DNA from: Candidatus Brocadia sp. | GTDB lineage: Bacteria > Planctomycetota > Brocadiia > Brocadiales > Brocadiaceae | NCBI GenBank assembly: GCA_021650915.1 | Contig: CP091279.1 | Span: 180,001 to 212,000 of the forward strand | DNA: 32,000 bases | Direction of reading: 5' to 3' | In this document: positions 1,826-28,841 of the stretch, one piece after another | How positions within the stretch are numbered: position 1 is the stretch's first letter | Layout of the letters: every line of letters starts with the position of its first letter | Translations under genes and position numbers: made by a program | Notes under the pieces: model-generated | Told to the model about the DNA's origin: nothing | The model's input: the letters and a program-made list of their open reading frames with translations, nothing else | The model's database searches: none

Positions 1826-3283
1826 TCAGGAACCCTTTTCCATCTGAATATGCCAGTACATAAGACCCCGGAAAAGCGCGGGGAATATTTTGAATAATAT
1901 TTTGAGATCAAGAACCAATGACCAATTATCAATGTAATCAAGGTCCATTTGCATCCATTTCTGGAAATCGGGCTGAAATCTGTTGCTTACCTGCCATGTG
2001 CATACAATGCCGGGGCGAAAACTTAACCTTCGTCTCTGCCACCGCTCATATTTCTCCACTTCATCAGGGATCGGGGGGCGCGGCCCGATGAGGGACATGT
2101 CGCCTTTCAGGACATTAAATAATTGCGGCAGTTCGTCCAGGCTCATCATTCGCAGGATACGGCCTGCCGGGGTTACCCGCGGGTCATTTCTCGAATGGAA
2201 GACGGGGCCTTTGCTTTCATTCAAGTGCCTGATCTTATCAAGCATCTTGTCGGCATCCACGATCATGGTGCGAAATTTATAGAGCGTAAAGGGCTTTCCA
2301 TATAACCCGCAGCGTATCTGTCTGAAAAATACCGGGCCCGGCGAGGTTAGTTTAATCGCGACAACGGCCATCATAAAGACAGGAAGCGAAGAAACAAGGA
2401 CAATCAGGGACACCAAAATATCCACAAACCTCTTTATCAGCAGGTGAAACACATCGTAGGGCGTGGCATCAAGACTCAAAAGAGGAAAGCCGTGGAGTTG
2501 TTTAATTTTAGGCTTCGCCACAGAGGTATTAAAGAGGTCTATCGCAACCGTTGCTTTCACTCCAACCTTCTCGCAGGTATCTATATGAACTTCAAGACCG
2601 GCAAGCCACTTCCGCGGGAGGAGAAAGATCACCTCGCTTACCGCATGATTATCGAGAATGCTGGCCAGGTCTTTCAGTGCGCCGATCACCTCGTACTCTC
2701 CAACCTTCATACCGACCCGTTCTTCTTCATCAATAAAACCCATTATCCTGAAGCCCCACTGAGGATTTGTCTTGATGATATGGGCGAATCTTCTTGCCCT
2801 TTTTCCTGAGCCAGCGATGAGGAGTGTCCTGGAGTTATATCCTCTCCGTCTCATATGATGGAGCAGAGCAAGGATGAGACATTTCTCCGCAACAAGCGTA
2901 ACCAGGATGCATAAAGAAAAGGTGGTAATAAAGGTCCTTGATATCACTTCGAATTTTAAAAAAAAGGCGATGACTGAAAAGACTATTGAGGCAAGCAGTG
3001 AGCCTTCAAAAATGTTCCAGCAGGCGTCGATAAGCCGCTTCTCCCTCAAAGAACGGTACATTCCAGCATGAGAAAGCGATACAATCCATAAAGGCGCGAC
3101 AATAGTCAATAGCCATGCGCTCTCCTGCAAGGAGGGCAGTCTGTGCAGCCTTGCCAATTTTCCCGGAGCGAAATATGACAGAGAGTCTCTCAGGAGATAT
3201 GGCAGACAAAATGCAATACCTACAACAAGGCAATCAATGGCGATGACTATTCTTCGAAAAAGCTGATCGTGTTCGTAAATCAT
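1826..3283 (-). CDS. Polyprenyl-phosphate glycosyl-1-phosphate transferase (bacterial sugar transferase family; WcaJ/EpsB-like exopolysaccharide priming enzyme)
   Basis: The N-terminal half has about 4-5 TM helices. The C-terminal catalytic region reads SPGPVFFRQIRCGLYGKPFTLYKFRTM...DELPQLFNVLKGDMSLIGPRP, characteristic of the Bac_transf family. Confidence 0.85.
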   Translation of the reverse strand: MIYEHDQLFRRIVIAIDCLVVGIAFCLPYLLRDSLSYFAPGKLARLHRLPSLQESAWLLTIVAPLWIVSLSHAGMYRSLREKRLIDACWNIFEGSLLASIVFSVIAFFLKFEVISRTFITTFSLCILVTLVAEKCLILALLHHMRRRGYNSRTLLIAGSGKRARRFAHIIKTNPQWGFRIMGFIDEEERVGMKVGEYEVIGALKDLASILDNHAVSEVIFLLPRKWLAGLEVHIDTCEKVGVKATVAIDLFNTSVAKPKIKQLHGFPLLSLDATPYDVFHLLIKRFVDILVSLIVLVSSLPVFMMAVVAIKLTSPGPVFFRQIRCGLYGKPFTLYKFRTMIVDADKMLDKIRHLNESKGPVFHSRNDPRVTPAGRILRMMSLDELPQLFNVLKGDMSLIGPRPPIPDEVEKYERWQRRRLSFRPGIVCTWQVSNRFQPDFQKWMQMDLDYIDNWSLVLDLKILFKIFPALFRGLMYWHIQMEKGS

Positions 3284-5496: not shown

Positions 5497-7048
5497 TTAA
5501 TCAACGGTTGGATTTGGCCGGAGATGGAATTCTGCTATCTTGTTATTCAGGCTTGAGCGGCTGATTCCGAGCTCTTTTGATGCATAGGTCTTGTTCCATC
5601 GTGCCCGTTTTAAGGCGTCGCAGACCATGTTTTTCTCAAGGGTACTGAGGGCATCGCTGAGTTTGGCTGGTTGTAGCATGGTTATGAGTCTGCAAACCGT
5701 TATACGCGTCCGCAAGGATTTCCTTGGGAATGTGTGTAATTTCAATAACCTCACTGGCGCCGGACAAAAGGATTAAACGCTCCATCAGGTTTTTCAGCTC
5801 ACGCACATTGCCCGGCCAACGATAGACCAGCAATAGTTCCCTCACCTCCCGGCCTATTTCCTTCCTCGGTTCTTTACGAGCTATGGCATAATAGTCCAAA
5901 AAGTAATTGGCGAGGGGGAGAATGTCTTCCCGCCTTTCCCTGAGCGGAGGCAGTGTCAGGTGGATCGTATTAATCCTGTAAAAGAGATCTTTTCTGAAGA
6001 GACCTTGTTCAATCAATCCTTTTAGCGATCTATTTGTTGCAGCAATAATTCTGACTTTTGCCTTTTTCTGTTCTGTGCCTCCCACCCGGTAAAACGACCC
6101 GTCTTCCAATACCCGCAGGAGCTTTGCCTGGATTTCGATATTCATGTCGCCAATCTCATCCAGAAATAATGTCCCCTTATCCGCAACTTCAAATAAGCCT
6201 TTCTTATCAGAGACGGCGCCGGTAAAGGAGCCTTTTTCATGTCCAAATAATTCCGAATTAAGAAGGGTATCACTAAACGCAGAACAATTCTGAATAACAA
6301 ATGTTTTATCTTTGCACGGACTGTTATAATGTATGGCGGCCGCTATCAGTTCCTTTCCCGTTCCGCTTTCACCTTCGATTAAAACAGGGCTTTCACTCCG
6401 TTCAATGAGCTCTAAGGTATCAAACACCTGTCTGATTGCCGGACTGGCGCCGATGATTCTCCTATACTTTTCTTTATAATTGCCCTCCAGGAGAAAGAGG
6501 CGCTTCTTTGTCGTTTCATTCTTTTCCTGTAAGTATTCGTAAAAGGCTGCGACATCTTCAGCGACATGTTTGACAAAGTCGGATATATATTCCTTCTTGT
6601 GCTGGTCGATCGTTTTCATGTTCCGGTAGCACTGGTCCAGTTCCATGCTATCAAAACCGAGCTCCATGAGCGTTTCCCGATACCTCTTTTGAATGGGATC
6701 GTCGTCTTTTAATGATCGGATACCGGATCCGATCATGACGCCCACATATTTTTGTTGTACCGGAACTGGAACTGCAAAGCCCTGCAGGCCCGCAAAACAT
6801 TGGTAAAAAAACGGTGTTTGGCTTTTCCTGCATTTTTTCAGTTCCTTCTGATACGTCTGAGCGCAAAGTTTTATTCCTTTGGGTATGGAATGGATTACGC
6901 TGCAGACGGGGTTCTGGAAAAACGTACGATAGTTTTTACAGGCGTCATATTCGTCATAAAACTGTATGTCAATACCCCACCAGGCGTAACTGATTTTCCG
7001 GAACGTCCTGATGACATGTGATTCTGCGATTTTAATCCAATCAATCAT
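5497..7048 (-). pseudogene. Sigma-54 enhancer-binding protein (PocR-like sensor + AAA+ + Fis-type HTH) with the HTH in a different frame
   Basis: ORF 5636..7048 carries GESGTGKE (Walker A), GSFTGA (GAFTGA-type sigma-54 contact loop), LFLDEIG (Walker B) and RVIAATN-like motifs. The N-terminus has a CFAGL...PV...YVG pattern reminiscent of PocR. The HTH_8 segment (LEKNMVCDALKRARWNKTYASKELGISRSSLNNKI) lies in ORF 5497..5754, whose codons are offset by 1 nt. The frame junction is somewhere in 5636-5700. Confidence 0.75.
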
Positions 7049-7835: not shown

Positions 7836-10523
7836 TCACCGTGGCAATAAGGACGTTTCCAGAATTTTATACCACTCATTGAAGACATCCCGACTCCTCA
7901 AATCCAGAACCCTCTGTTCGTCACCCTGTCCCTTTTCGATCTCAGGCAACCGTGCTTTATCCGATAACTGCATCTGGTCTGACTTGAATGCCTCCCACCC
8001 TCCCAGCTTATCCGCAATGTGGTATCCAAGCGCACGGTACGCCTCAAACTGCGCCTCATCAAAGAACTGGTCGGCCGTCGATTCATGGGGAAAATCCTTG
8101 TTTTTCGAATGATACTCACGGATATATTCATTTTCATCACCCGTGAGGGAAGACTTGATGTACAGGAGATACCCCGTCTCTCCGTCTCCGTAATGAATTT
8201 TTCCGGATGCACAGTGTTTGTTGGTAAATTCATTTTCATCTTTTCCCCTTCGCAGGGCATTCAGATTAATGTCAATATCGATGCTCAAATCAATGCGGGC
8301 GTACCGTATCAGCTTCGCCAAACCTCCAAAAGTCATATCCGGATCTGCCTCCGCATCGCAGGCAATGATGTATTTGCACCTGCGGCGCAGCAGTTCATAA
8401 ATACCGAGGTTTTCAATGTGACCACCATCTGAGATATTCACATATTTACTATCTTCTGTAATCCAGCCAAATAGTTCTTTTACGAGATAGTACGGCCCGA
8501 CACCTGCAAATGGACTTCGACTATTATATTTTAGGAAAAGGTGTTTAGCCTTCCTTAATTTATGGGGATTTGGAATCCAATATCCCAGTCTGATATTAAG
8601 GAGCGCCATAATAAAAACAAGCGGTTTTATGGTGGTTGTACCCATATTAGGCGCTGCCGCAGCGCCGGATATGGCCATAGCGGTTCCCAGATCCAGGTGA
8701 GAATCCGCCTTTTCCATATCTGCCGTTTTACAAAATCCCGTTTTCATACCGCCGCAAAAGTGTTTACTGAGGATAAAAAAATCCGCATTCCGATCACGAA
8801 GATTAACATCCTCGCTTCCTTGCAGATTAAGCGCCACATTGATCAGGTGATACGGCGCCTTTGTGCCTCCTCTGTTTAGATGGGAAAGTTTTTGTTCATC
8901 ATTCGGTCGGATATTGCTCTCTTTTCCCGCTGTCTGAAACAAATACGCCGGGCTTAATTGGTCCCGGTAATAGTTGTGAAAAGACGTCCTGTTTATATCC
9001 GTAATTATCCTCGTAATACCAAACACTCCCGCGGCAGTGGCAAACAACATGGCTAAAGAAATATACCCGTTCAGCAGGCACTTACATAGCATTAAGTAAA
9101 GGAGGAAAAGAATAAATGGTCCCAGCATACCCAGGAACCAGAGTGTTATTTTCCCCCGCACCTTTGAAATATTTTCAGCCACCTTTCCGGCAAATATTAC
9201 CGGAATAAAGGAAATCACCGCGGCTATTACCGTCCTTATCCATTCCATGCCTAATGCGAGATAATAGGAAAGCACCGTTACTGTGAGTTCCAGAAGCGCG
9301 CATATAAAAACCAACAAGAGTCCAATGCTGAATGTTTTATCATAGCCGGTACGACTTTTGATCTTCTGGAAAAAAAATATCTGAATGAAAAGGAAGAGAA
9401 ATACATAGCACAGATAACCAATTCCAGACACTACGGTTAAACGATACTGGTTGTAAAATGTTTTCCAGTCCAACGAGAAATTTCTTTTATTGATCTGTTT
9501 TCCTACGAATGACCACCAGTTAACGTCGCCATCAATTCCCGTCAAAACATCCCTTATCTCTTGCTTTTGTTTAAACACCCTGCCTTCCAACTGTGCCATA
9601 ACCTCAGGAGGAAGTCCCTCCGACTTTAATTTTTCCCGGGCGTTTTCTGTAATTACATAGTGTGATTGTTGTTCCACCTCATTCAATGTATTACCATACA
9701 ATAATACCGTCACTATTACCGCCGCCATAACATACGGTAAGAGCAAGAGCAGATTAATCAGTGCGCCACGCACGAAAAGAGCCGGTATCTTTAGCCAGTC
9801 GATGATGCCATTCGGCGCGATATAATTGCCATAATTTCTCAGATGTTTAAATGCCAGAGGTTCTGGCTTTCCTTTCTCGTGGCGAAAGGGAAATTCCTTC
9901 TCCCCCGGTCCGGTTTCCGGATTATTGAGCACAGAACTCAGGCATGAGCCAATATACCCACCACCAGAAACGGTCGAGAGGTAATCAACGTGTTTAAGAG
10001 CCCCATGCTCTGCAAGCACCTGCAGGACACCAAGATTAAACGTGGCAGAGCGGATACCGCCGCCCGACAGAGCTAAACCAACAAGACCGTAGCTCGTTGT
10101 TGGTTTAGCTTTTTTCATTAATTCTTTCTTTTTATCCTCGTAAATATTTTTGCAGTGTTCATATTCAGCATTTGTTTCTCTTTCCCAAAAATTCTTGCAC
10201 ACCTGCCTTATGAACAATAAAGGGTTTTTCTTTTCTTTTTCAGAAAGATTTTTTCTGCATTTCTGGAAATTCCTATAGACCTTTTTAACAAGACTTCCCT
10301 TACCTTCCTCCTCTCTCTGAAGTTTTGTTTCCAAATCATGAAGGGTTTTTCGTATTCGTATTACTTCATCCATTTTTGAAAGTTCATTTATCAGATCTCC
10401 TCTTTCCGATCTGAAATCCGCAGGAGAGAATACTTCTTTCCGCCGCGCAGCAATCTCAATTAATTCGGTGGGAAACACTTCTCTATCAAACTGTTCGCTT
10501 AAATCACGATTCTTCTTTTTCAT
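7836..10523 (-). CDS. cPLA2/patatin-like phospholipase with about 6 TM helices inserted between the Ser and Asp motifs
   Basis: Motifs present are LSGGGIRSATF (oxyanion hole, GGGxR), STVSGGGYIG (nucleophile Ser) and ISDGGHIENLG (catalytic Asp). The N-terminal 150 aa are charged and coiled-coil-like. Six hydrophobic helices lie between roughly aa 255 and 520. The track ORF starts at TTG 10550; I prefer ATG 10523, which is preceded by AGGAG 7 nt upstream. Confidence 0.8.
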   Translation of the reverse strand: MKKKNRDLSEQFDREVFPTELIEIAARRKEVFSPADFRSERGDLINELSKMDEVIRIRKTLHDLETKLQREEEGKGSLVKKVYRNFQKCRKNLSEKEKKNPLLFIRQVCKNFWERETNAEYEHCKNIYEDKKKELMKKAKPTTSYGLVGLALSGGGIRSATFNLGVLQVLAEHGALKHVDYLSTVSGGGYIGSCLSSVLNNPETGPGEKEFPFRHEKGKPEPLAFKHLRNYGNYIAPNGIIDWLKIPALFVRGALINLLLLLPYVMAAVIVTVLLYGNTLNEVEQQSHYVITENAREKLKSEGLPPEVMAQLEGRVFKQKQEIRDVLTGIDGDVNWWSFVGKQINKRNFSLDWKTFYNQYRLTVVSGIGYLCYVFLFLFIQIFFFQKIKSRTGYDKTFSIGLLLVFICALLELTVTVLSYYLALGMEWIRTVIAAVISFIPVIFAGKVAENISKVRGKITLWFLGMLGPFILFLLYLMLCKCLLNGYISLAMLFATAAGVFGITRIITDINRTSFHNYYRDQLSPAYLFQTAGKESNIRPNDEQKLSHLNRGGTKAPYHLINVALNLQGSEDVNLRDRNADFFILSKHFCGGMKTGFCKTADMEKADSHLDLGTAMAISGAAAAPNMGTTTIKPLVFIMALLNIRLGYWIPNPHKLRKAKHLFLKYNSRSPFAGVGPYYLVKELFGWITEDSKYVNISDGGHIENLGIYELLRRRCKYIIACDAEADPDMTFGGLAKLIRYARIDLSIDIDINLNALRRGKDENEFTNKHCASGKIHYGDGETGYLLYIKSSLTGDENEYIREYHSKNKDFPHESTADQFFDEAQFEAYRALGYHIADKLGGWEAFKSDQMQLSDKARLPEIEKGQGDEQRVLDLRSRDVFNEWYKILETSLLPR

Positions 10524-10549
10524 TTTTTCGCTCCTGTTCTTCGAGAGCA

Positions 10550-10580
10550 AAGAATCCGCCCGCAGAGCAGGCTGATTCTT
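10550..10580 (-). other. Intercistronic hairpin between the caspase-fusion and phospholipase genes
   Basis: The segment aagaatc (10550-10556) pairs with gattctt (10574-10580), and gcc (10558-10560) pairs with ggc (10570-10572). No U-tract follows. Function is unknown. Confidence 0.35.
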
Positions 10581-10583
10581 TAC

Positions 10584-13145
10584 TTAGTTATCCAGTGCAT
10601 TGCGTTTCACTTCAAAAAATTCTGAAATTTTTCTGTACGTCTCCGCCTGTTTAAAGTAATTAAGGTGGTAGACATGGTCTGCTGGCTGAAATGCATGGCT
10701 TAATGTCTTTTTACCTTGAATGCCTTTTGGCCAGTCAACAATCATTTTTTCTGTATCAACCACTAAATCATTTGGCGCGCCGAAAAAGGCATCGGCAATG
10801 CCGTCAATAATGTCATCCCTGACCCCACCCGCGGAAATTCCTGATGGTTCAAACTCAGACCCAATCGTGTCATACGTTACCACCCCCTTAACATCAGTAC
10901 CTTTCTTGTTTAAGGTGTTGATAAAATCTGAATGGGGATCCATTGCCCAAATCCCTGGAATTGACTGATCTTTGATTTTCTGAGAAAGGAACTTAACCAA
11001 CCCGCCAACGAGGCTAAAGAAAATTTTCATGGGCGCCCCGCCGGCGAAAAAGAAGATATTCGTTAACAGATTGACCATTTTTGACAATGAATCCCATTTG
11101 CTGGTATCTGCCAGACTGGTTCCACCCGCAGGACACGCAACCATAGTTACCCTATCTACGTATCGATATCCTTCGTCAGTAAGCTCGACCAGAGACCGCA
11201 ATACCAGCCCACCACGGCTATGCGTTATTACATCAAACTTCAAACCCACATCCGAAATACCGGATTCCTTCAATTTCATCAGCATCTCACGGGCATTCTC
11301 AAGAGGAGTTTTTGACAGGGTGAAATGGTCATATCCCAGAATGACGGGATAGGTATCCTTTAACGTCTCCAGAATTGCCGGTGGTACATCTTCATATCCG
11401 CCCTCAAGAGAACTTCCTGTGCCATGAATGAAGAGAAGCGCCTTCTTGTTGCCTTTTACCAAATCCCTGACACCATCCCAATGGGTTACCGGATCGGTTT
11501 TTGATAGTCCTTCAACAAAGCCCTTGCTGTGCTCGATCAGCTTAAAGCCTTCCTTGATTACCTTTTCTTCAAATGCCTGCAACATCTTTTTTATAGCTTC
11601 AGAACTGCCCTCCTGGAACCAGTCTTTCGTAAATTTGATAACACAAACAAGCTTGCTCCATATCCCCCGTGTAGTCCTGTTCTGCACCTTAAAAGGAATG
11701 GTAAAAAAGCTCATTGGGCGTATTTCGTCACCCATCAGCCCCTTACTTGCCCCATCATCATCCTTAAAGTGCCACGCCCATACACCGTCTTCATGTGAGA
11801 GAAGAACCGTCTCTTGTTCTGTCTCTCCGGTTTTTTTGAGTTCACCTCTAATGGCAAGTTGAATTGGTTTCAACAGTTCTTCTATACCAATAACACGCTG
11901 TTCATTCGGACAAAATTCAAGCACCTTTTCAACCTTGAAGTATTCACCGTTTTCCAGAAAATCAAGACATTCCGGATGATAAGCATCGCCAATTGCATTA
12001 CGACTGCCATCCTTTGCCTTCCGGTTTGCTATGTCGGTCAAATCCCTTACCGTTCCAATAAATTCAGATGAGGGAAGAAGAATTACATCTCTCGAAATTG
12101 CACATTTTAAATTTTTAGAGGAAATAGATATACGTCTTAATGCCCCATTATCCCCCTGGGATTTGAAATCTGATACGGGGGAGTCTGAAGAAACCGGACT
12201 CGTGTAACCTTTCGGCGGATGCCCTTCACTGCATATCAGGGGGTGCCCATGTTCACAGGTAAGTTCGGTCTTCATGGCTGCAGACAAAAACCTTGTATTT
12301 TTTAGATCTTCATTCCCGAATAATTGCGGAATTTGACTGAAGGAATTATATGCAAGACTATTTTGCACCCTTTTCACAAGTTCCTGATAGGTTATCGTTC
12401 CTCTTGTATCCCGGATTGTTTTGCAAAGGTTATAGGTAAAGGCGCCATGGTAGTCGTTACTAATAAAGGCATCGGCAGAGGTCTGGTCGTCCATACACCC
12501 CGACAGGAGGATATGCTTTGCTTTGGCGCTCGTTTCGGACGCCGTATTTTTCTTGTCTTCCTTAATTCTTGCGCCCATTCGCCGGACAGCCGCCATTCTC
12601 CGGTAGCTTCTCAATGCAACATCCGCCGGTGGCTCAATAAAACGCGGCTGGATCTTTATTTCGCCGGGAGAAATTTGCAACTGCGAAGTAAGATATGCAA
12701 GGTCCCTGGTCGCAGTTCCAGAATGACATGAATCGATACACACCGTTAAAAAAGCCCCCTTAGGTATGCGATCGATGATATCGTTAAAGTCGTCATCAAG
12801 CAGGTAGGAATCCGGATTCCTGAAATCCATATCGTGCAAACAGAGGATTTCATCCAGCGAATCTTCCAGTTCATCGCCATCGCGATCCTGTATCTGTGAG
12901 CCATGCCCTGAAAAATGGAATACCAGGATATCTCCTTCCCGGGCTTCGTCTAAAAGCCAATCAAACCGGTTCATCAGGTTATTCCGGGTAACACCCTCAT
13001 CAACAATGGTCCGAATTTCATCCGTCCGAAACCCGTAAAAACTCGTCAGAATGTCGACCATGTTGCGCACATCGTTGACACAGCCATTGAGAGGTCTTAC
13101 GTATTTATACTTGTTGACCCCCACCAACAATGCCTTTTTCCCCAT
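10584..13145 (-). CDS. Caspase-like peptidase (C14) fused to a C-terminal alpha/beta hydrolase (esterase/lipase-like) domain
   Basis: The N-terminus reads KKALLVGVNKY...NGCVNDV...FHFSGHGSQ (catalytic His) ...CIDSCHSGT (catalytic Cys). The central ~300 aa were not recognised. The C-terminus reads ALLFIHGTGSS...VITHSRGGLVLRS (nucleophile elbow variant). The ATG directly abuts the upstream gene's stop (TAG|ATG), and AAGGAGG lies 5 nt upstream. Confidence 0.8.
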   Translation of the reverse strand: MGKKALLVGVNKYKYVRPLNGCVNDVRNMVDILTSFYGFRTDEIRTIVDEGVTRNNLMNRFDWLLDEAREGDILVFHFSGHGSQIQDRDGDELEDSLDEILCLHDMDFRNPDSYLLDDDFNDIIDRIPKGAFLTVCIDSCHSGTATRDLAYLTSQLQISPGEIKIQPRFIEPPADVALRSYRRMAAVRRMGARIKEDKKNTASETSAKAKHILLSGCMDDQTSADAFISNDYHGAFTYNLCKTIRDTRGTITYQELVKRVQNSLAYNSFSQIPQLFGNEDLKNTRFLSAAMKTELTCEHGHPLICSEGHPPKGYTSPVSSDSPVSDFKSQGDNGALRRISISSKNLKCAISRDVILLPSSEFIGTVRDLTDIANRKAKDGSRNAIGDAYHPECLDFLENGEYFKVEKVLEFCPNEQRVIGIEELLKPIQLAIRGELKKTGETEQETVLLSHEDGVWAWHFKDDDGASKGLMGDEIRPMSFFTIPFKVQNRTTRGIWSKLVCVIKFTKDWFQEGSSEAIKKMLQAFEEKVIKEGFKLIEHSKGFVEGLSKTDPVTHWDGVRDLVKGNKKALLFIHGTGSSLEGGYEDVPPAILETLKDTYPVILGYDHFTLSKTPLENAREMLMKLKESGISDVGLKFDVITHSRGGLVLRSLVELTDEGYRYVDRVTMVACPAGGTSLADTSKWDSLSKMVNLLTNIFFFAGGAPMKIFFSLVGGLVKFLSQKIKDQSIPGIWAMDPHSDFINTLNKKGTDVKGVVTYDTIGSEFEPSGISAGGVRDDIIDGIADAFFGAPNDLVVDTEKMIVDWPKGIQGKKTLSHAFQPADHVYHLNYFKQAETYRKISEFFEVKRNALDN

Positions 13146-14390
13146 CTACTCCTCCTTTTTGTAAAATAACTCCCCTCTGTTGCTCGTGCCATTCCATAAT
13201 TGAAACCCTTGTACTTCATTCGACTGGTCATCAATCTTGAAGATGACATAATCAATCGATTCCTGTTGTCCAAATACGATCTGCTTTTTCTTGTATCCAC
13301 CGGGGACAATCCTTCTTCTCCAGGTGCCGGTATTTACATAATATTTTTCCTTGCCGTCCTCCACATTCAGGAGTTGGACACAACTTTCATGGGTGTGACC
13401 AAAGAGGACGTAGTCGCACTGATGTTGCTCGCACAATTTTAATGCTTCCAACGCATTCTTGTCCGTGTCTTTGATAAAATCCCGCTTGATTTCCAAAAAT
13501 TTTTCGTAAACCCGTTCCAGGGTGGTATCCGTAAAGTGCTTGAATGCTATTTCAAGTTTATCAGCATCATCGGGGAGCAGACTCCAATAGTCGTGCTTTT
13601 GCAACCACTCTTTAACAAACGCATCATGAAAGAATTTATCCGACAGTATGTTCCAGGTATCGATTAATATCTTCTGATTTTTAGGCTTCAGGGACTTCTT
13701 CACCTGGTCAATCCAGTACGGTGTCATGGTAGACGGCCTGAGATTATCGATCTCCTGAAGGGCGTCAAATACATCCGGATCATCGATAACCTTGTTAACC
13801 TCTTCGGGATATTGATTAATTAAGAGCGTTACAATTGCATCGCCTACCGGCAGTGCATTATTTTCCGTTTTATTGTATACGTCATAATTATTGCCATGAA
13901 CTGCATAGACAGGCAACCCGTCTACCCGATATTCCCAGGGAAATGGTTCGCCCTTGCTTTTTGTGTAAGAAATTCCTGAAACGTCCCGGATTTTTTCTCT
14001 CATATCCTCGTACCCTTCGCTATTAATCAGACGGTCGTGATTCCCCATGATATAGGTAATTTTCACCTTTTTTTCTTCTACGTATCCCTTTAAGGTATCA
14101 AAGACCGATTTATTTTTTTTGATCACTTTACTTAAAACCTCGTCCACCCGCTCCTTTTTTTTCTTTGAAGCTTCTGACCACGGCTGCATATCTCCTGTCC
14201 ACTGCGTCGAGCGGATTACATCGATAAAATCACCGAGGATGATAATTTCCAATTTTTTCGTGCCGCCTGCGTTGTCTACGTCACCTTGAATATCACTCCA
14301 GAATCCTTCGAGCGTACCGGCAGTAATATTATGATCGCCTGTGGTAGTATCTGACAAATGAACATCACTGAAAAAGACCTTTATCGACAT
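13146..14390 (-). CDS. Calcineurin-like metallophosphoesterase
   Basis: The ordered motifs are FFSDVHLSD, ILGDFIDV, MGNHDRL, AVHGNNYD and LFGHTHES. A GGAGAAGG SD lies upstream of ATG 14390. Confidence 0.8.
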   Translation of the reverse strand: MSIKVFFSDVHLSDTTTGDHNITAGTLEGFWSDIQGDVDNAGGTKKLEIIILGDFIDVIRSTQWTGDMQPWSEASKKKKERVDEVLSKVIKKNKSVFDTLKGYVEEKKVKITYIMGNHDRLINSEGYEDMREKIRDVSGISYTKSKGEPFPWEYRVDGLPVYAVHGNNYDVYNKTENNALPVGDAIVTLLINQYPEEVNKVIDDPDVFDALQEIDNLRPSTMTPYWIDQVKKSLKPKNQKILIDTWNILSDKFFHDAFVKEWLQKHDYWSLLPDDADKLEIAFKHFTDTTLERVYEKFLEIKRDFIKDTDKNALEALKLCEQHQCDYVLFGHTHESCVQLLNVEDGKEKYYVNTGTWRRRIVPGGYKKKQIVFGQQESIDYVIFKIDDQSNEVQGFQLWNGTSNRGELFYKKEE

Positions 14391-14620: not shown

Positions 14621-15982
14621 TTATTTTTTAAGATGTGACACTCTGCCCCCCTCGTTGTTTTGAAGAATTCTCACTGCGTTTCGCAGTTGCTGAATCCATA
14701 ATGGAGTCCCAGTTCTCTCTTTCCAATTTTTAGGAAAAGACCAATACAGCGTGTGGCTGAATAGCCCCAAGCGGAGATTGGTTTTAACTGCAACATCCTT
14801 GACACCTTGCCCGAACATTGGCGCGACCGGTCCACCGATCAAATCACCCCAGAATGTCCAATGGCAAGGGAAATAGAGGTTGGTCCAGCGGGTAGGTGCG
14901 AATACCGCCGCATGGTGTGGCACCCAAACACCATCCTTCTCGAATGAAAAGGTTTTCAGCTTTAACTTTTTCACAGTCCTGTCTTCTAAGACAGGTGGAC
15001 AAGCCGGAAACTCGCGCTCTTCTTCTTTACGTACAAAATTCCGTTCGTCCCGTGCCAATAACACAGATGCGTGTGCAAGCGGGCTACCCAAAGTAACAAA
15101 ATCAGTTACCTTCCATTTATTTCCCTGACTCTGTAGCTCAGTCAGATAAGCAGATTGGATTGTTTGATACGTTTTTATGTCTAGACTTCCGGTTAAGGAC
15201 TCTCGAACCATATTTTCTAACTTATCAAGCTCTGTGTACGTGGTTGGATTTCTAGATGCAGCCATTACATGAGCATTATGATAACGTACCCAAAGATGCG
15301 TCAGGATGTCATATCCAATCACACTTCCTAAACTGTGTCCTACGACAATAATACGATCATACCTAGGTGAGGAATGCAATTTTTCCAGGAGTTGGATTCC
15401 AGCCTCACGAATCCGGCGTCGAATTTCTATATTTGGCGGGGCGACATGTAAATAACGTGCTGCATCCCCGGCATATTTGATAAGAAATCCAATGAGCAAT
15501 GAGTTAAAAATAAACCATGCAAAGCTACCTACCTTTATGACCCATAGCGAAATCGGCACGAACTTAAACACATGGTTCAAACCGGCTATTACTGCCAGCA
15601 AAAAGAGCGCGATGATCAAGTACCAAATGCCACGCAGTTGCCTGGGTACACGCCAAGGCCAGCGCAAGACCAAAACCTTGGCCCATGCGCCGACATGAGA
15701 AAGAGTCGTACCTTCCATTAAATGCGCCCAATAGAATTCAAAGAAATCCGTCCTCTTCTTGTCACGATTGTCAGCGGTAGTCAGTCGTCTGAGTTCAAAG
15801 TTGCCTGAAATTGCGTCTGGTTTGCTCAAAGCCTGGGCTGGTTTATTGGACCAGCGAAGCGACGAATCGGTAACCCATACTGCCTCAACAAACCCGCGCA
15901 GTGTGTCCATTGGTACTTGTTCGCCGATGCCGTGAATCAAGACGACTGCTTGTTTTGGTTCTGGTTTTTCCTCTTCTGCCAT
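14621..15982 (-). CDS. Membrane-embedded alpha/beta hydrolase (lipase-like, GHSLG)
   Basis: VVLIHGIGEQ lies near the N-terminus. Hydrophobic helices follow (IWYLIIALFLLAVIAGL, WVIKVGSFAWFIFNSLLIGFLI), then IIVVGHSLGSVIGYD. A perfect AAGGAGGT SD precedes the ATG. Confidence 0.75.
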   Translation of the reverse strand: MAEEEKPEPKQAVVLIHGIGEQVPMDTLRGFVEAVWVTDSSLRWSNKPAQALSKPDAISGNFELRRLTTADNRDKKRTDFFEFYWAHLMEGTTLSHVGAWAKVLVLRWPWRVPRQLRGIWYLIIALFLLAVIAGLNHVFKFVPISLWVIKVGSFAWFIFNSLLIGFLIKYAGDAARYLHVAPPNIEIRRRIREAGIQLLEKLHSSPRYDRIIVVGHSLGSVIGYDILTHLWVRYHNAHVMAASRNPTTYTELDKLENMVRESLTGSLDIKTYQTIQSAYLTELQSQGNKWKVTDFVTLGSPLAHASVLLARDERNFVRKEEEREFPACPPVLEDRTVKKLKLKTFSFEKDGVWVPHHAAVFAPTRWTNLYFPCHWTFWGDLIGGPVAPMFGQGVKDVAVKTNLRLGLFSHTLYWSFPKNWKERTGTPLWIQQLRNAVRILQNNEGGRVSHLKK

Positions 15983-16030: not shown

Positions 16031-17587
16031 TTATGTACTGACAGAAAAGGGGGCAAAACGTTTTATAAGCAACCAGATTAATTGCCCCATGTCTTTGTCT
16101 AAAATGTCATTATGTGCATCATTTGGTTTATTTTCACCATTGCTAGAATTACATCCATCAACTATTACACTAGCGTCAATCAGTATTACTTTTTTCTCAT
16201 CTTCTTTCGGTATTTTTGATAATTTATCCAAATCTGTTTCGTAATTGTTTGTCCATTTGATCACATGAAAGACACCCTCATTATTTTCTTTCTTTATTTT
16301 TTTATTTTTTTCTTCTTCATTTTCTTTTTTTTCTGCATAGGCCAAACCATATTTACCGCCAACATGCCGTGAACCGGTAATAAAACGTGCAGTTTGATTT
16401 GCTGTATCATACCGTGACGATGTCAATGTAAATTTGGTCTCGTAATCTTTAAATCCTGCATAAGGAGAGCCTTCCCATCCTGCGTTTGCTACGAACCTTT
16501 TTGCACTGAATGCCCCCTGTAATCCGATAAAAAGATCTGCGTGTGACTCTGAAGAACTCTTGCGCAATTCAGACTTTTCAGACTTTTCAGGTTTTATATA
16601 TTCCTTACTAATAATTGCCTGAGAAAGGATCTGCGCTCCCATGCTGTGACCGATGGCAACAATCCTGGGACTAAAATCCTCTTTATATTCTTTCTTACAA
16701 TCGGTTTGAAATTCTTCTTTCGCTGACAATACTACCTTATGAATAACCCAATTTGCAATGGTACACCCAATTTCATCAGCATCGCCTTGTTTGGTAAAAT
16801 AACTAAAAAGAAATACTGTGTTTTTTTTCAACCAATTATTTTCTATTCCAGACCAAACGCTAGGCCATGTAAAACCAATTACCAGCGGGTTAAAGGAATC
16901 GCCTTTCTCATTATGAGCAGCATTTTTAACCTTATCAAGTATTGTATTGTAGCGATATATTGATTCCTGTTGATTGTTATTCCACCCCATAGACAAAATA
17001 ATGATGTGAGAATACGGTTTTTCCTGCTTTTCCGGCTCCCTACGCCATGTATGCACTTTTTCCTTTAAATCACTTACCAGCCTTTTTTCTAAGCATTCAA
17101 GCGCCTCGTATCCATCCTCGTAGTTTAAGTCATCTTTTTTATATTCGTCATAGGCATTATACAGAAAGTATGGCTTTCTATGTGTGTTAAAAGGACTGTT
17201 ATCTGGTTCTTCAAAATATCGCGCAATATGCGTTATTAGCATTGCCGTGTCGTCACCTGTGTATCTTTTAAAATTTTTGTCTCTTTTCTTTTTCTTTTTA
17301 ATCTCAGGGTCTCCACTATTTTCTTTGGATTCAGAAAGCAGTGAAAATCGGTCCGGATAACACTCCTCCGGAATCCCTCTTAATGATTCTCTTTCCCTTT
17401 TTTCAATACCAATAAGATAACCATCGTATTCTAATGAGAGATGTGATATGCGAGCCAGGTCACTGTATGGCAAATACGTTTGTATTTTACTGTTTTTGTA
17501 AATATTTTTTGTTTGCATCTTATTAGCCGAGCATCCGGCAAGAATCAGTAGCGAGAACAGTACAAAACCAAGATTATACTTTCGCAT
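16031..17587 (-). CDS. Lipoprotein alpha/beta hydrolase (GHSMG; DUF900-like esterase)
   Basis: From ATG 17587 the N-terminus is MRKYNLGFVLFSLLILAGC, a signal peptide ending in a lipobox. The nucleophile motif is IVAIGHSMGAQI. The protein has Lys/Glu/Asn-rich low-complexity stretches, and the DNA is AT-rich. The track start at 17635 is TTG and contains the RBS, so I reject the extension. Confidence 0.7.
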   Translation of the reverse strand: MRKYNLGFVLFSLLILAGCSANKMQTKNIYKNSKIQTYLPYSDLARISHLSLEYDGYLIGIEKRERESLRGIPEECYPDRFSLLSESKENSGDPEIKKKKKRDKNFKRYTGDDTAMLITHIARYFEEPDNSPFNTHRKPYFLYNAYDEYKKDDLNYEDGYEALECLEKRLVSDLKEKVHTWRREPEKQEKPYSHIIILSMGWNNNQQESIYRYNTILDKVKNAAHNEKGDSFNPLVIGFTWPSVWSGIENNWLKKNTVFLFSYFTKQGDADEIGCTIANWVIHKVVLSAKEEFQTDCKKEYKEDFSPRIVAIGHSMGAQILSQAIISKEYIKPEKSEKSELRKSSSESHADLFIGLQGAFSAKRFVANAGWEGSPYAGFKDYETKFTLTSSRYDTANQTARFITGSRHVGGKYGLAYAEKKENEEEKNKKIKKENNEGVFHVIKWTNNYETDLDKLSKIPKEDEKKVILIDASVIVDGCNSSNGENKPNDAHNDILDKDMGQLIWLLIKRFAPFSVST

Positions 17588-17827
17588 TGTTGTTTTTCCT
17601 TTCTCTGAAGTCAATGTAGTCTCATCGATTACCAATTACACGTTCATACTGCATTAATAAACTGAAAGCCAAAAAGGCAAATAAAATTACACGGTTTTCA
17701 TTTTATTCTCCTCCAACATAAAATCGTATTGTCGTTATTCAAAACTTGGCGCGGCAAATGACATCAATTTCATTACTTTCAATGGGCACACTGGTAACGA
17801 TTGAGCCTTTTCATTCTCTTTATCTCA

Positions 17828-17971: not shown

Positions 17972-19837
17972 TTACGGAGCCACTGTCGGTGTAGGCGAAA
18001 CAGTCTCTATAGGTTTAGTTTTGAAAGATTCTTCAGATCCCTCAGATTTGCCTAAAGTATTTTCTGCTGCAATTCTGTAATAATATGTAGCGCCAAGTAA
18101 TAAGCCTTTTATTTCAACATTTATTAGCTTCTCTTCCTTATCAGTTACCTCTATCTTATCAGACTGGCTTCCATATGCCCCACTGACTGTGCCGTAGTCA
18201 AACCAAGCTGTTGTTGAAGCGCCATTGGCAGTTACCATTCCATGCAGCGTAGCAGAATTTGCAGTTGTATTCGTGGCTGTACCTGTTTCCACCGTTGGGG
18301 TAGAGATTTTGGTAACGAATGAATTCTCACTTCCATAAGCCGTATCTGCGGAATTTTTTACTGCAATTCTGTAATGATATGTAGTAGCAGGCTTTAAATC
18401 ACTTATTTCAGCTGTTACCGGTGTATCGCCTGTTCCGGTTATTGTTCCCGGCTGCGCATCTTTTTTTCGGCTATAATTTCCGGATTGCGTGCCATAATCA
18501 AACCACGCGTTAGTGGATGCATCACTATTGGCAGTTACTGTCCCATGCAATGTAACAGAATTTGCAGTCATACTCGTAGCCGTACCTGTTTCTACTGTTG
18601 GTTTAGGGATTACCACGTCTACAGCAAAATTGCCTGAACGACCAAGCACATTAAACACGGTTACAGTCGAGGAACCTGGTCCAACGCCTTTAATTACGAT
18701 TCTATCAGTGCCCCGTTCAAAATCACTAATATTATCAACAGTCACTACTCTTATATCATCAGATGCATACGTTATTGCCTTGCTATTGATTACATGTACA
18801 GTATGAGTTCCTCCAACACTAATGCTCAATCTCGTTGGCACTACTTTGATTTCTCCCAACTTTTCAAGCATTCCTGTTGCCGCCTTTAAATCCTCGATTG
18901 TCGGAATCGTCTGAAATAACGCCTTATCAACCAGTTTTAGGCAAGCCGCTGTCTCTACCAAAAGCTGGCTTCCTTCCGGGGTAAGTTTTTCTGCACTTAT
19001 TGTGGTTATAGCCCCATTTTGTGTCATTTTCTGGTAATAACGCGCCTCAGCGTCCTGGAGTAATGCAAGTCCATCTTTGTATGCTCCAACCCTGTCTCTT
19101 GCCTGAAAGATATTCTGCAGTTCTGGTATAACAGCGCTAACTGCGGCCAAAGCAGCAGCAGTTGTTACATCCTTTGTAATAAGACCCAACGTTGCACCGG
19201 CAGCAGCAGCAAGTATCTGCACTGTACCCGAACCCAGCCGCACTCTTCTTCCAAAATCCATTCTCGCTCTTAGTGCCTTTTGTATATCACTGGAGAATCC
19301 AATAACATCCGCATCGGTTACTTTAACGTCTTTCAACGGCACGCTCACTCCAAGCCCAGTAAATTCAATACTATTATCCTTTACTTTGAACTTCATTCCA
19401 TTTACAGCATATTCTTTTTCCTCATACTTAATCAAATCATTGAGTACTGGTTTGATATTTTCTTCTATAATCTGGTCTTCAGGTTTTAAATTAACCGTTT
19501 GGATATGTATTTTGATTTTGTCCGTGCATGCCTTTATCAGCTCATCTTTCTTTTTTTCTTTATTTTCACTATCTACCAACTCTCGGAGGGCCTTTTTGAC
19601 CTCACCTTCTTTACCTGGCTTAATAAAATCACGGATCTTTTCTACACTCTTCTCTATATTGTCATCTTTTGTCATAACCATAGAACGAGCCCACACCCTG
19701 TCCAGCAAGGTAGGTTGATATTTATAATATTTTTTATCTGCTCTAAAGGGGTGATAACCACATCCAACAATACTGCTTGATGACACAGAAAAAACCAAAA
19801 AATATACTAATTTACTGCTTTTCACACGGTTACCCAC
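17972..19837 (-). CDS. Lipoprotein with Ala-rich hydrophobic segment, Big_2-like domain and two FN3-like repeats
   Basis: The start is GTG with AAGGAG 6 nt upstream. The lipobox is SSIVGC (Cys26). Residues 331-408 resemble Big_2 (IVIKGVGPGSSTVTVFN). Residues 413-510 and 514-608 are paralogous PTVETGTAT...ANS.TLHG.VTAN...AWFDYGT...Y.YRIA repeats. Confidence 0.75.
   Translation of the reverse strand: MGNRVKSSKLVYFLVFSVSSSSIVGCGYHPFRADKKYYKYQPTLLDRVWARSMVMTKDDNIEKSVEKIRDFIKPGKEGEVKKALRELVDSENKEKKKDELIKACTDKIKIHIQTVNLKPEDQIIEENIKPVLNDLIKYEEKEYAVNGMKFKVKDNSIEFTGLGVSVPLKDVKVTDADVIGFSSDIQKALRARMDFGRRVRLGSGTVQILAAAAGATLGLITKDVTTAAALAAVSAVIPELQNIFQARDRVGAYKDGLALLQDAEARYYQKMTQNGAITTISAEKLTPEGSQLLVETAACLKLVDKALFQTIPTIEDLKAATGMLEKLGEIKVVPTRLSISVGGTHTVHVINSKAITYASDDIRVVTVDNISDFERGTDRIVIKGVGPGSSTVTVFNVLGRSGNFAVDVVIPKPTVETGTATSMTANSVTLHGTVTANSDASTNAWFDYGTQSGNYSRKKDAQPGTITGTGDTPVTAEISDLKPATTYHYRIAVKNSADTAYGSENSFVTKISTPTVETGTATNTTANSATLHGMVTANGASTTAWFDYGTVSGAYGSQSDKIEVTDKEEKLINVEIKGLLLGATYYYRIAAENTLGKSEGSEESFKTKPIETVSPTPTVAP
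18014..18601 (-). repeat. Intragenic tandem duplication encoding the two FN3-like repeats
   Basis: The repeat units are 18308-18601 and 18014-18298. Their ends share ccgtacctgtttc(t/c)ac(t/c)gttgg, and the protein repeats align clearly. Confidence 0.7.
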
Positions 19838-20085
19838 ATGATTCTCCTTTTTTCTTTTGGCGTATGAATTTTGCTGAAGAAAATTTACAAAGACTCATCA
19901 ACATACAGCCTCGTTATGAAGCACATCATTTATGCACCCATAAAAGGTCTAACATACCGATATTTATTAATTCCCACCCCTGACACTTTTTTAGGTATTT
20001 TTTCGCACCTCCTTTTATAAACCCTTCTAAACTGACCTTGTTGATCAGCCATAATGTTTTATTTTCAGGACCCTTTCACCATAAT

Positions 20086-20240
20086 AAAAAAAGCCTTACT
20101 GCAAAGATTTTTCAAAACATCTTCGGCAGTAAGGCTGTCTTTATTCCTGGGGATCGTGTTTTCTAAACCACTTCCGTGTCGGCTTAAAGATCCACTACTT
20201 TGCGCCCCCTGATCACTCAGGGTTTACCTTTCTCGTTATG
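20086..20240 (-). promoter_or_regulatory. GEMM-I-like riboswitch with intrinsic terminator, copy 3 (variant core)
   Basis: The minus-strand RNA reads GAGAAAGGUAAACC-CUGA-GUGA-UCAGG-GGGCGCAAAG. The hairpin AGCCUUACUGC...GCAGUAAGGCU follows (20126-20136 with 20092-20102), then U6. The core differs from copies 1 and 2 at two conserved positions (GGU vs GGC; GGCGC vs GACGC). The element lies 248 nt upstream of the lipoprotein GTG. Confidence 0.55.
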
Positions 20241-27681: not shown

Positions 27682-28025
27682 CCGGTTAGCCCGATACCAA
27701 AAATCGGAAATGTACACGGGCAGGCTGTTATTCTCATTTATAATATTGGTGACAAAAGCCACTGTCAATAGAAAAACCGTATCCCCGTCATGCATACAGC
27801 ACCATCGCTGAAAACAGAAAAATATCAGAAGAGTATAGAGTCGCAGGATATGGTTCTGGATATGGTTATGGATAAGAACGGTAAACGGAGATGATCAGAC
27901 AGCGGGAGAGAAAGACCGGAAAAATGAGGTGTAAAGCAAAAAGATATAGAATTCTGGGGAATGAAAATGCTAAGATAGTAGCGTCAATTTTCATATCCAG
28001 GGTGTTTGAAAGGAAAAGATACATC

Positions 28026-28841
28026 ATGATACAAGAAAAAATCGGGTTTATCGGTGGCGGGAGGATGGCGGAGGCGCTCAGCAGAAGTCTTATCGGGAGC
28101 GGGCTGAGTGATGCTGGCCGTATTCTGGTAAGTGATGTGCTGCCGGAACGATGCCGGCTGTTAAGTCAGGAGACCGGCGTAAAGACAACACAAAACAACA
28201 AGGACGTGGTTGCCTTTGCTGACGTTCTTATCTTTGCGGTAAAACCTCCCCTGATGAACGAGATCCTGAATGACCTGAAAAACAGTATTACCCAACGGCA
28301 TATCGTAATATCGATTGCCGCGGGCATTCCGGTGCGATTTGTTGAATCCAGACTGCAGGCGGGCGTTCGGGTCGTCCGGGTAATGCCGAATACCCCCTGT
28401 TTGGTTGGCCTCTCAGCAACGGCCTTTGCCCTGGGTCAGCATGCTACCCCGGCAGATGGGCAATTGGTGTCCACCCTCTTTCAGTCCGTTGGGAAGGTGT
28501 TTCAGATGGAAGAAAAGTATTTGGATTCCGTGACCGGCCTGAGCGGAAGCGGCCCTGCGTACGTTTATCTGTTTATTGAGGCATTATCGGACGGCGGCGT
28601 CAAAGTGGGGCTGCCGCGGGATATCGCCACTACCCTTGCGGCGCAAACCGTATTGGGCGCCGCAAAGATGGTCCTGGAGACGGGACAGCATCCGGCCCAG
28701 TTAAAGGATGCCGTGACCTCGCCGGGCGGCACAACGATTGAAGGAATAAGCGCGTTAGAAGACGGCGGCCTCCGGGCGGCCGTCATCAATGCCGTCGTGG
28801 CTGCAACGTTAAAATCAAAGAAATTAGGAGAACTATCATAA
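28026..28841 (+). CDS. proC: Pyrroline-5-carboxylate reductase
   Basis: The dinucleotide-binding N-terminus is KIGFIGGGRMAEAL. The C-terminal region reads VTSPGGTTIEGISALEDGGLRAAV. I place the start at ATG 28026, preceded by AGGAAAAG. The 45-codon upstream extension in the track shows no similarity to ProC. Confidence 0.9.
   Translation: MIQEKIGFIGGGRMAEALSRSLIGSGLSDAGRILVSDVLPERCRLLSQETGVKTTQNNKDVVAFADVLIFAVKPPLMNEILNDLKNSITQRHIVISIAAGIPVRFVESRLQAGVRVVRVMPNTPCLVGLSATAFALGQHATPADGQLVSTLFQSVGKVFQMEEKYLDSVTGLSGSGPAYVYLFIEALSDGGVKVGLPRDIATTLAAQTVLGAAKMVLETGQHPAQLKDAVTSPGGTTIEGISALEDGGLRAAVINAVVAATLKSKKLGELS

Follow-up and report, generated by a model that had tools for sequence, protein, structure and literature searches.

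A metacaspase-DUF7362-lipase fusion protein in a c-di-GMP-riboswitch-headed hydrolase array of Candidatus Brocadia: a candidate protease-activated lipase

A 32,000-nt stretch of the Candidatus Brocadia sp. genome (contig CP091279.1, positions 180,001 to 212,000; the whole stretch is referred to as the window) was found to encode an 853-aa protein consisting of three parts: a metacaspase, a divergent DUF7362 domain, and a DUF7379 lipase-like alpha/beta hydrolase. The open reading frame (ORF) of this fusion protein (10584..13145, minus strand, ATG start) lies next to that of a metallophosphoesterase (MPE) in a same-strand array of hydrolase genes headed by a riboswitch for cyclic di-GMP (c-di-GMP). 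The explanation that we favor, with middling confidence, is that the fusion protein is a cytoplasmic two-enzyme effector, a metacaspase-activated lipase, in a variable, c-di-GMP-riboswitch-headed array of Brocadia hydrolases directed at lipids and phosphoesters. In this model, DUF7362 would hold the lipase inactive. The protease domain would cut an exposed loop at a near-invariant Arg493-Gly494 dipeptide, in cis or between molecules, and the lipase freed by the cleavage would attack membrane lipid and could thereby damage the cell. The expression of at least the first array genes would be tied to c-di-GMP, a signal of the aggregated (biofilm or granule) state. The pairing of a caspase-fold protease with an alpha/beta hydrolase is already known from computational work; what is encoded here is a C14-based form in which the protease is N-terminal and both enzymes occupy a single chain.

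The N-terminal domain (aa 1-285, 12291..13145, minus strand) is a canonical metacaspase by sequence and predicted fold. It matched Pfam Peptidase_C14 over aa 3-276 (4.8e-36), and a phmmer search against the PDB aligned aa 3-280 with the Candida, yeast Mca1, and Arabidopsis AtMC4 metacaspases at E-values of 1e-36 to 1e-33. A Foldseek search with the AF2 model (pLDDT 69.5) likewise returned plant, yeast, and trypanosome metacaspases, with AtMC4, AtMC9, and Yca1 as the top matches. About 37 full-length homologs of the fusion protein were found, and an alignment was built from 26 whose identity to the window protein is 31-75%. The catalytic His81 (FHFSGHGS) and Cys140 (DSCHSG), as well as Ser643 (THSRGG) of the lipase domain, are present and invariant in these 26 homologs, which agrees with the intact C14 dyad described in an earlier note on this DNA. 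Most residues of the motifs around His81 and Cys140 are invariant as well. The p10 motif SGCMDDQTSAD could also be aligned with Candida and yeast Mca1 and AtMC4, as could the acidic stretch DRDGDELEDSLDE of the Ca2+/S1 region that follows the catalytic His. Metacaspases cleave after Arg or Lys, and this specificity and a dependence on Ca2+ are predicted for the window domain. The His-Cys dyad, the acidic stretch, and the SGCxDxQTSAD p10 motif are shared with type I metacaspases and prokaryotic orthocaspases (C14B; yeast Yca1, PDB 4f6o); unlike type I metacaspases, the window protein has no N-terminal prodomain and carries a 570-aa C-terminal extension made of DUF7362 and the lipase. The linker between p20 and p10 is ~60 aa long, is modeled at low confidence, and contains an invariant R168. 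The NCBIfam model "caspase, EACC1-associated type" was excluded because the protein scored 45.9 bits against a cutoff of 140.

Neither a signal peptide nor a segment with the hydrophobicity of a transmembrane (TM) helix was found in the fusion protein by sequence and hydropathy analysis. The named proteins most closely related to it are annotated as "caspase family protein" in Candidatus Brocadia, Brocadiaceae, and Desulfobacula. The metacaspase is followed by a Cys/His-rich motif, CEHGHPLICSEGHPPKGY (aa 295-312, 12210..12263, minus strand), and then by a low-complexity linker (aa 313-334). C297, G300, and P302 of the motif are nearly invariant and the AF2 pLDDT is <50; the motif is missing in the homolog P0036 and has diverged in P0037.

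The C-terminal domain (aa 566-853, 10587..11450, minus strand) matched lipases by Pfam, profile, and structure searches. Pfam assigned aa 570-746 to DUF7379 (PF24096) at 6.7e-53, or 179.9 bits against a cutoff of 33. A profile search of the PDB found the putative lipase 7x2p (1.7e-5) and BlEst2 (0.003), and Foldseek matched the domain to bacterial lipases. Ser643, Asp793 (PNDLVVD), and His827 (HVYHLNYF) make up a putative catalytic triad. All three are invariant; Asp793, which sits in a low-confidence loop, and His827 are placed in the triad on the basis of their order and invariance. A hydrophobic helical hairpin (aa 681-725) is the likely lid of the lipase. The serine-hydrolase-type domain with a THSRG nucleophile elbow that the earlier note had described is confirmed by the DUF7379 match and the invariant serine. 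T-H-S-R-G is an ordinary small-x-Ser-x-small lipase elbow, comparable to elbows of the GHSMGG or AHSMG type.

Is this lipase domain associated with caspase-fold proteases outside the fusion family? A metagenome scan by lipase-specific patterns yielded 80 loci, and the 71 DUF7379 loci outside the fusion family were scanned with home-built hidden Markov models. A CHAT protease was encoded in the same frame as DUF7379 in 49 of these 71 loci (one of them also with C14), a CHAT or C14 gene was adjacent in six, and neither was present in 16. In other words, a caspase-fold protease is fused to or adjacent to the lipase in 55 of the 71 loci, and most of the 16 loci without one are truncated contigs. 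The DUF7379 frames in these loci are mostly 1,150-1,550 aa long, and their architectures are DUF7362-DUF7379-(TCAD7)-DUF7363-CHAT(-C14) or DUF7379-CHAT-TPR-S. Separate genes also occur: a C14 gene lies 1.2 kb from the DUF7379 gene in locus L170, and in L171 a CHAT gene overlaps the DUF7379 gene beside SIR2-like genes. Based on sequence, DUF7362-DUF7379 is therefore a widespread lipase module, and the window protein is a permuted, C14-based form of a general protease-lipase pairing. It shares the lipase module, the Arg-Gly loop, and the HSRGG elbow with the DUF7362-DUF7379(-DUF7363)-CHAT proteins and with ~550-aa "esterase/lipase family" proteins (PF24062/PF24096). Unlike the DUF7362-DUF7379-CHAT proteins, it has a C14 protease at the N-terminus, a DUF7362 too divergent for the Pfam model, and an extra beta segment of ~55 aa plus the Cys/His motif before DUF7362. 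In two metagenome-assembled genomes (MAGs) of Burkholderiales/Proteobacteria (L070, 5786-12599; L080, 3939-10682), a stand-alone C14 gene is located directly 5' of a ~1,900-aa DUF7379-LCAT-CHAT-TPR-S frame, giving two caspase-fold proteases and two lipase-type domains per locus.

Predicted immunity and cell-death systems of bacteria contain pairs of this kind repeatedly. In the computational survey of Kaur, Burroughs, Iyer, and Aravind (eLife 2020, e52696; PMC7159879), the caspase-superfamily domain of ternary systems "always" occurs with a neighboring alpha/beta-hydrolase gene, a calcineurin-type phosphoesterase is listed as a common effector, and fusions of several effector domains are common in the conflict systems described. 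The hydrolase of that survey would correspond to DUF7379, judging from the domains that co-occur with it. The window protein likewise couples a caspase-superfamily peptidase to an alpha/beta hydrolase, and relatives of its hydrolase carry CHAT as well as TCAD7 and TPR-S, two Pfam domains named in the survey. It differs from the surveyed pairing in being one polypeptide with an N-terminal C14 metacaspase rather than a C-terminal CHAT, and in its location in a riboswitch-headed array. In the fusion family both enzymes share one soluble chain, whose catalytic residues are clear and which offers one candidate cleavage site, Arg493-Gly494.

The region between the two enzymes (aa 335-565, 11451..12143, minus strand) is beta-rich and was listed as an unrecognized domain in the earlier note. 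An additional domain is indeed present, but it is not unrecognized: its segment ~390-540 is a divergent member of the named, uncharacterized DUF7362 family. Pfam matched DUF7362 in 20 of 26 fusion-family members (best E-value 4.4e-5), with the window protein itself below reporting. In an hhalign comparison, the family's middle region matched the N-terminal regions of 25 CHAT-linked DUF7379 proteins over ~390-540 with a probability of 98% (E-value 1.7e-13). In the structure prediction and Foldseek search proposed in that note, an AF2 model of aa 335-565 from a 16-sequence alignment was beta-rich (pTM 0.68), and Foldseek found no significant match for it in the PDB (best E-value 0.079, probability <=0.33). 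DUF7362 goes with the lipase rather than with the protease: it always accompanies DUF7379 and precedes it. DUF7362 could plausibly serve as a regulator or pro-domain.

How might the protease act on the lipase? The candidate P1-P1' site is Arg493-Gly494 in QNRTTRGIWSK (11664..11669, minus strand), a near-invariant dipeptide of DUF7362. All 26 fusion-family members have the Arg-Gly, as do 22-23 of the 25 CHAT-linked proteins; it sits in a loop that varies in length and whose residues 488-493 have an AF2 pLDDT of <50. In an alignment built on the DUF7362 profile, all 41 loci that have a caspase-fold partner retained the Arg, and five loci shown to be without one had it replaced. The replacement is ALG in L105, L106, L111, and L114, which form a clade of ~550-aa DUF7362-DUF7379 proteins, and KHG in L169, which has an astacin-like neighbor. 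Because metacaspases cut after Arg or Lys and the Arg was lost only where no caspase-fold partner exists, the pattern is suggestive of the loop being the target of an Arg/Lys-specific protease and of DUF7362 being a removable inhibitory domain of the lipase. Within the ALG clade, L106 and L111 have a beta-CASP metallo-beta-lactamase gene 5' of the lipase gene, and L105 and L114 encode an S41 C-terminal-processing protease nearby on the opposite strand; the four loci may represent a swap of the partner protease. A split fusion gene was observed in L172 (10001-12593), where a 503-aa ORF with C14 and the middle region overlaps a 371-aa DUF7379 ORF and where HEPN/NTase and methylase genes are nearby. 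The break is close to the Arg-Gly loop; a frameshift or an assembly error could explain it, or the gene may be naturally split.

The gene directly 5' of the fusion gene encodes the MPE (13146..14390, minus strand), a soluble protein of 414 aa with an ATG start. It matched Pfam Metallophos (2.9e-9) and has intact calcineurin-type metal motifs (D9xH11, GD54, GN117H118D, H165, and GH332TH334), in which D9, H11, D54, N117, H118, H165, H332, and H334 are invariant across 30 homologs. An insert of ~140 aa separates motifs IV and V. Its nearest solved relatives, at a weak E-value of 0.002, are LpxH structures. Identity with LpxH was ruled out, as the NCBIfam equivalog model gave 20.6 bits against a cutoff of 134 and a second model 17.9 against 190. 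LpxH, too, has calcineurin-like metal motifs and an insertion that separates motif IV from motif V, but it is only ~240 aa long, and the MPE is without a lipid-A gene context.

The two genes abut without a spacer or an overlap. On the minus strand the junction (13143..13157) reads AAAAAGGAGGAGTAGATGGGG: a Shine-Dalgarno sequence (SD) AAGGAGG (13157-13151) within the end of the MPE coding sequence, 5 nt 5' of the fusion-gene start, then the MPE stop TAG (13148-13146) and the ATG (13145-13143). The coordinates, the TAG/ATG abutment, and the AAGGAGG inside the upstream coding sequence given in the earlier note were all borne out by the ORF list and the sequence. The same 0-nt layout was found at locus L004 (AAGGAGGAATAAATG) and at L089 (AAGGAGGAGTAAATG). 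Abutting stop and start codons with an internal SD are commonplace in operons. The window itself contains a second example at 28839-28844 (plus strand), where the stop TAA of a pyrroline-5-carboxylate reductase gene (P5CR, 27891..28841) abuts the ATG of a transketolase gene (28842..30854), again with 0 nt and an internal SD, and these are unrelated housekeeping genes. Because an identical 0-nt junction joins P5CR and transketolase in the same window, the MPE junction is weak evidence for a dedicated pair; it is real, but taken alone it indicates little beyond co-transcription. The point applies as a caution wherever a dedicated protein pair is deduced from a 0-nt stop-start junction. In the window strain, the layout suggests that the MPE and fusion genes are likely co-transcribed and probably translationally coupled. 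The P5CR-transketolase pair also adjoins the fusion gene in L001.

Is the MPE a constant companion of the fusion protein? The MPE family is small (89 matches, including a 99% identical protein from a Candidatus Brocadia MAG), and an MPE gene lies 5' of the fusion gene in only three Brocadia lineages. In the window/L089 lineage and in L004 the two genes abut (0 nt); in the B. sapporoensis clade (L006, L084, L085, L090-L092) 117 nt separate them, and the fusion gene has an SD of its own. The 0-nt junction is thus kept in two of the three MPE-bearing lineages, but the pairing is not conserved across the family. No MPE was found beside the fusion gene in L001, L002, L003, L005, L093, L097, L070, L080, or L172, and two MPE homologs, 41% and 28% identical, are encoded in unrelated gene neighborhoods without a link to a caspase. 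A comparison of the regions 5' of the MPE in the window, L004, and L006 found nothing in common except the SD. By its motifs and distribution, the MPE is a catalytically intact, lineage-specific accessory of the array and not a defining partner of the fusion protein. The 1:1 functional pair proposed in the earlier note finds little support in this comparison.

The array is headed by a c-di-GMP-I aptamer at 20122-20238 (minus strand; Rfam RF01051, 50.3 bits against a gathering score of 35). It is one of three such aptamers that an Rfam scan detected in the window (50.3, 55.2, and 61.6 bits), all above the gathering threshold. The other two, also on the minus strand, are located at 3567-3679 (GGC variant, RF03167), preceding a Bac_transf sugar transferase gene (3283..1826), and at 7276-7414, preceding a sigma-54 activator gene (7048..5636). 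An intrinsic terminator with a hairpin and a U-run (20083..20145, minus strand; minimum free energy -52.7 kcal/mol, z -4.8) forms the expression platform of the array riboswitch, which in this respect, too, resembles known c-di-GMP-I (GEMM-I) riboswitches. In the Rfam structure line, the 3' strand of aptamer helix P2 shares nucleotides with the 5' arm of the terminator, AGCCUUACUGC. The ligand would therefore favor read-through, and the riboswitch is probably an ON switch. The aptamer and terminator are orthologous to those heading the L004 array, and the cargo diverges thereafter. Riboswitches also head the arrays of the B. sapporoensis clade (in the order riboswitch, a 1,107-aa membrane protein, MPE, fusion), L093, and L089. 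The arrays of three Brocadia lineages other than that of the window are headed in this way. A home-built aptamer model gave 12/12 matches in Brocadia fusion loci and 0 matches in 1.19 Mb around unrelated caspases.

A remnant of a caspase gene was found directly 3' of the riboswitch terminator and 5' of the first intact array gene (19922-19992, minus strand). It is a frameshifted 5' end of ~75 nt (KKVSGVGINKYRYVRPFMG and GCINDV) with its own SD (~20008-20016), recognized by tblastn (12/19 identities, E-value 5e-6 in a 451-nt search space) and by blastn (61/97). The position of this remnant suggests that a caspase gene was once directly under riboswitch control. Read-through from the riboswitch would also have to reach the MPE-fusion pair, 5.7-7 kb downstream, if that pair is to respond to c-di-GMP. 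Such control would place a caspase/lipase module under the second messenger that governs aggregation, in an anammox organism whose granule lifestyle is industrially important. To our knowledge, a metacaspase-lipase fusion with a battery of phospholipase-type enzymes has not been described as cargo of a c-di-GMP-I riboswitch. A full-text literature search combining c-di-GMP, riboswitch, and Brocadia found a general review only, and a search for metacaspases in anammox bacteria found nothing specific. A ~45-bp direct repeat that flanks the hydrolase genes (7374-7410/20198-20234) was considered as a pair of island att sites and excluded, since both copies are the conserved core of the c-di-GMP-I aptamer. 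In L004, the orthologous riboswitch is followed first by a gene (219-1112) for a 297-aa protein with no Pfam match, whose NNCYNYA ... GHLVALV ... DFHWY motifs give a Cys...His pattern reminiscent of a papain-like or transglutaminase-like hydrolase.

Downstream of the riboswitch the genes lie on the same strand in the order FN3 lipoprotein, DUF900 lipoprotein, a 453-aa protein with a GHSLG motif, MPE, fusion, and polytopic patatin. The first intact gene (17972..19837, minus strand) encodes a 621-aa lipoprotein with two FN3-type repeats (Pfam Pur_ac_phosph_N/fn3, lipobox SIVGC). It is followed by the gene of a 534-aa DUF900 alpha/beta hydrolase (16031..17635, minus strand; Pfam 8.2e-6) that contains GHSMG and whose lipoprotein signal reads LLILAGC; DUF900 homologs also occur in the L004 and L094 arrays. 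An equation of DUF900 with the Tle4 family was not used, as a literature search found no paper linking the two. The 453-aa protein (14621..15982, minus strand) has a TM hairpin (aa 114-169) and no match in Pfam, NCBIfam, or the PDB, and its lipase-type motifs (VVLIHGIGEQ and VVGHSLGS) suggest an alpha/beta hydrolase. The patatin-like phospholipase (7836..10550, minus strand; 904 aa, Pfam Patatin 5.5e-9), encoded 33 nt 3' of the fusion gene, has a block of TM segments at aa ~250-517 by hydropathy, and its ortholog in the L004 array is 59% identical. Patatin is part of the array in two lineages only, window/L089 and L004, and in L004 the patatin and DUF900 genes stand in a different order.

The cargo of related arrays varies. 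The L094 array has DUF900 and a Tle1-like phospholipase (1.1e-67), L005 a PLD-like protein with two HKD motifs, L001 a PhoD protein, and L002 and L093 extra stand-alone C14 genes. Patatin, DUF900, Tle1-like, and PLD-like genes, together with TM and lipoprotein features, give the neighborhood a lipid theme. GC content falls to 35-40% at 16-22 kb of the window, and this low-GC part is bordered by an ISL3-family transposase gene (20695-21868, minus strand) that is split into two overlapping ORFs and is a probable pseudogene. The head of the array appears to be strain-variable because the contig of L089 is 99% identical to the window, yet its DUF900 gene is only 83% identical and an FN3 gene was not found there. 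BLASTP detected no paralogy among the array proteins at E <1e-4, and scans for terminators and promoters within the array revealed no clear-cut operon limits. A sigma-54 promoter for the array was also sought, given the adjacent sigma-54 activator gene, and rejected: the pattern TGGCAC-N5-TTGCW with <=2 mismatches had 21 matches against 15.3 +/- 4.0 expected, none of them well placed.

Several observations weigh against a metacaspase-activated lipase under c-di-GMP control. The correlated loss of the Arg and of the protease amounts to about two independent evolutionary events, and Arg-Gly may be conserved for structural reasons and not for cleavage. The AF2 models are of moderate confidence (pLDDT 69.5 and 67.5). 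No paper containing "DUF7379" was found in a literature search, and we know of no experiment on any DUF7362 or DUF7379 protein. The riboswitch lies 7 kb 5' of the fusion gene with gaps of 336 nt and 230 nt in between, so that internal promoters are possible, and no riboswitch was found at the fusion-family loci L001, L005, L097, and L172. The zero background of the aptamer model in other taxa is weak support since the model is Brocadia-biased. A Pfam scan of the window covered 18 selected ORFs, namely all large non-nested ones, and left aside several ORFs of >=100 aa that are mostly nested; among those scanned there was no NTPase, MoxR AAA+, vWA, VMAP, STAND/iSTAND, or GTPase (GAP1-N) core of a conflict system. 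The only AAA+ proteins among them are two sigma-54 activators. Conflict-system core genes were likewise not found around L169-L171, and PADLOC reported no known defense system in the window, only its generic caspase model and cross-matches to sigma-54-type AAA+ proteins. Furthermore, a comparison of the window with L004 gave 86% identity for the MPE and 71% for the fusion protein. The higher conservation of the MPE, together with the kept 0-nt junction, leaves room for some functional tie between the two proteins within Brocadia.

Could the MPE and the fusion protein nevertheless form an obligate 1:1 complex through translational coupling, with the caspase cleaving and activating the neighboring patatin? 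This model draws on an analogy with gasdermins: a 2022 study by Johnson and coworkers is said to have described bacterial gasdermin pore-formers activated by a caspase-like protease. It would account for the conservation of the 0-nt junction and its internal SD in two lineages, for the high MPE identity between the window and L004, and for the presence of patatin directly after the fusion gene in window/L089 and in the same array in L004. However, at least eight family loci have no MPE, the spacing is 117 nt in the B. sapporoensis clade, and MPE homologs elsewhere lack a caspase link. The unrelated P5CR/transketolase junction is just as tight, patatin is absent from all remaining family loci, and no gasdermin family match was found among the neighbors in the Pfam scan. 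We consider this model very unlikely, and the comparative data favor the protein's own DUF7362-lipase part over patatin, which the earlier note had put forward, as the substrate of the caspase. The metacaspase-activated lipase retains from the gasdermin systems the concept of a caspase-fold protease that frees a membrane-damaging effector from an inhibitory segment; here the effector would be a lipase, and protease and putative substrate share one chain. An extension of it, which we regard as a long shot, is a riboswitch-gated death or lysis switch in which the metacaspase would cut its own DUF7362 and the lipase would act alongside the membrane phospholipases, with the MPE as a phosphodiesterase partner for lipid headgroups or a nucleotide signal. 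The P1 residue of the DUF7362-DUF7379 zymogen would then have co-evolved with the protease (Arg with the caspase fold, Ala-Leu with S41, and Lys-His with the astacin-like protease).

A role without death or immunity is conceivable but unlikely. A c-di-GMP-controlled set of enzymes, comprising lipases, phospholipases, and a lipid phosphodiesterase, might reshape the membranes or the cell surface during aggregation, with the metacaspase maturing these enzymes. Three c-di-GMP riboswitches, a PilZ protein, and a sugar transferase within 32 kb, the lipoprotein and TM-anchored members of the array, the LpxH lipid-A enzymes as the closest, if weak, relatives of the MPE, and the proximity of the fusion gene to P5CR-transketolase in two genomes would all fit such remodeling. 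The patchy, strain-variable content of the array, its low GC at 16-22 kb, and the adjacent ISL3 remnant do not, and neither do the relatives of the family in conflict-type architectures (CHAT, TPR-S, TCAD7, and SIR2 neighbors). Patatin, Tle1-like, and PLD-like enzymes are, moreover, classic membrane-damaging effectors. It is also distinctly improbable that the chain carries two independent effectors that share a trigger, act on separate targets, and involve no processing of DUF7362 or the lipase by the protease. Both active sites are intact, multi-effector fusions are common in the conflict systems of Kaur et al. (PMC7159879), and the split gene of L172 suggests that covalent linkage may be dispensable; but this arrangement leaves unexplained the near-constant protease partnership of this lipase family and the joint loss of the DUF7362 Arg and the caspase-fold partner. 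Least probable of all, and by our estimate highly so, is that the arrays encode exported antibacterial lipase toxins, Tle-like phospholipases directed against competitors in the anammox community. The Tle1-like domain in L094, the PLD-like and patatin genes in related arrays, and the export signals of the DUF900 and FN3 proteins would suit such toxins. In contrast, neither the fusion protein nor the MPE carries a signal peptide, the patatin is integral to the producer's own membrane, and no secretion-system or immunity genes were recognized among the scanned window ORFs.

Three features of the window lie outside the array. A STAS-PilZ protein is encoded at 4034-4783 among the riboswitches, and the region looks like a c-di-GMP regulon cluster. 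The sigma-54 activator encoded at 5636-7048 (minus strand) has an N-terminal PocR sensory domain and ends ~20 aa after the AAA lid, with no detectable C-terminal HTH_8 DNA-binding domain. Between the insertion sequence (IS) remnant and the array riboswitch, at 20395-20445, there is a perfect 14-nt inverted repeat, GTGTGTCATGGCAC...GTGCCATGACACAC, around the palindrome TGGCACATCTGTGCCA, which may be a terminator or an IS end.

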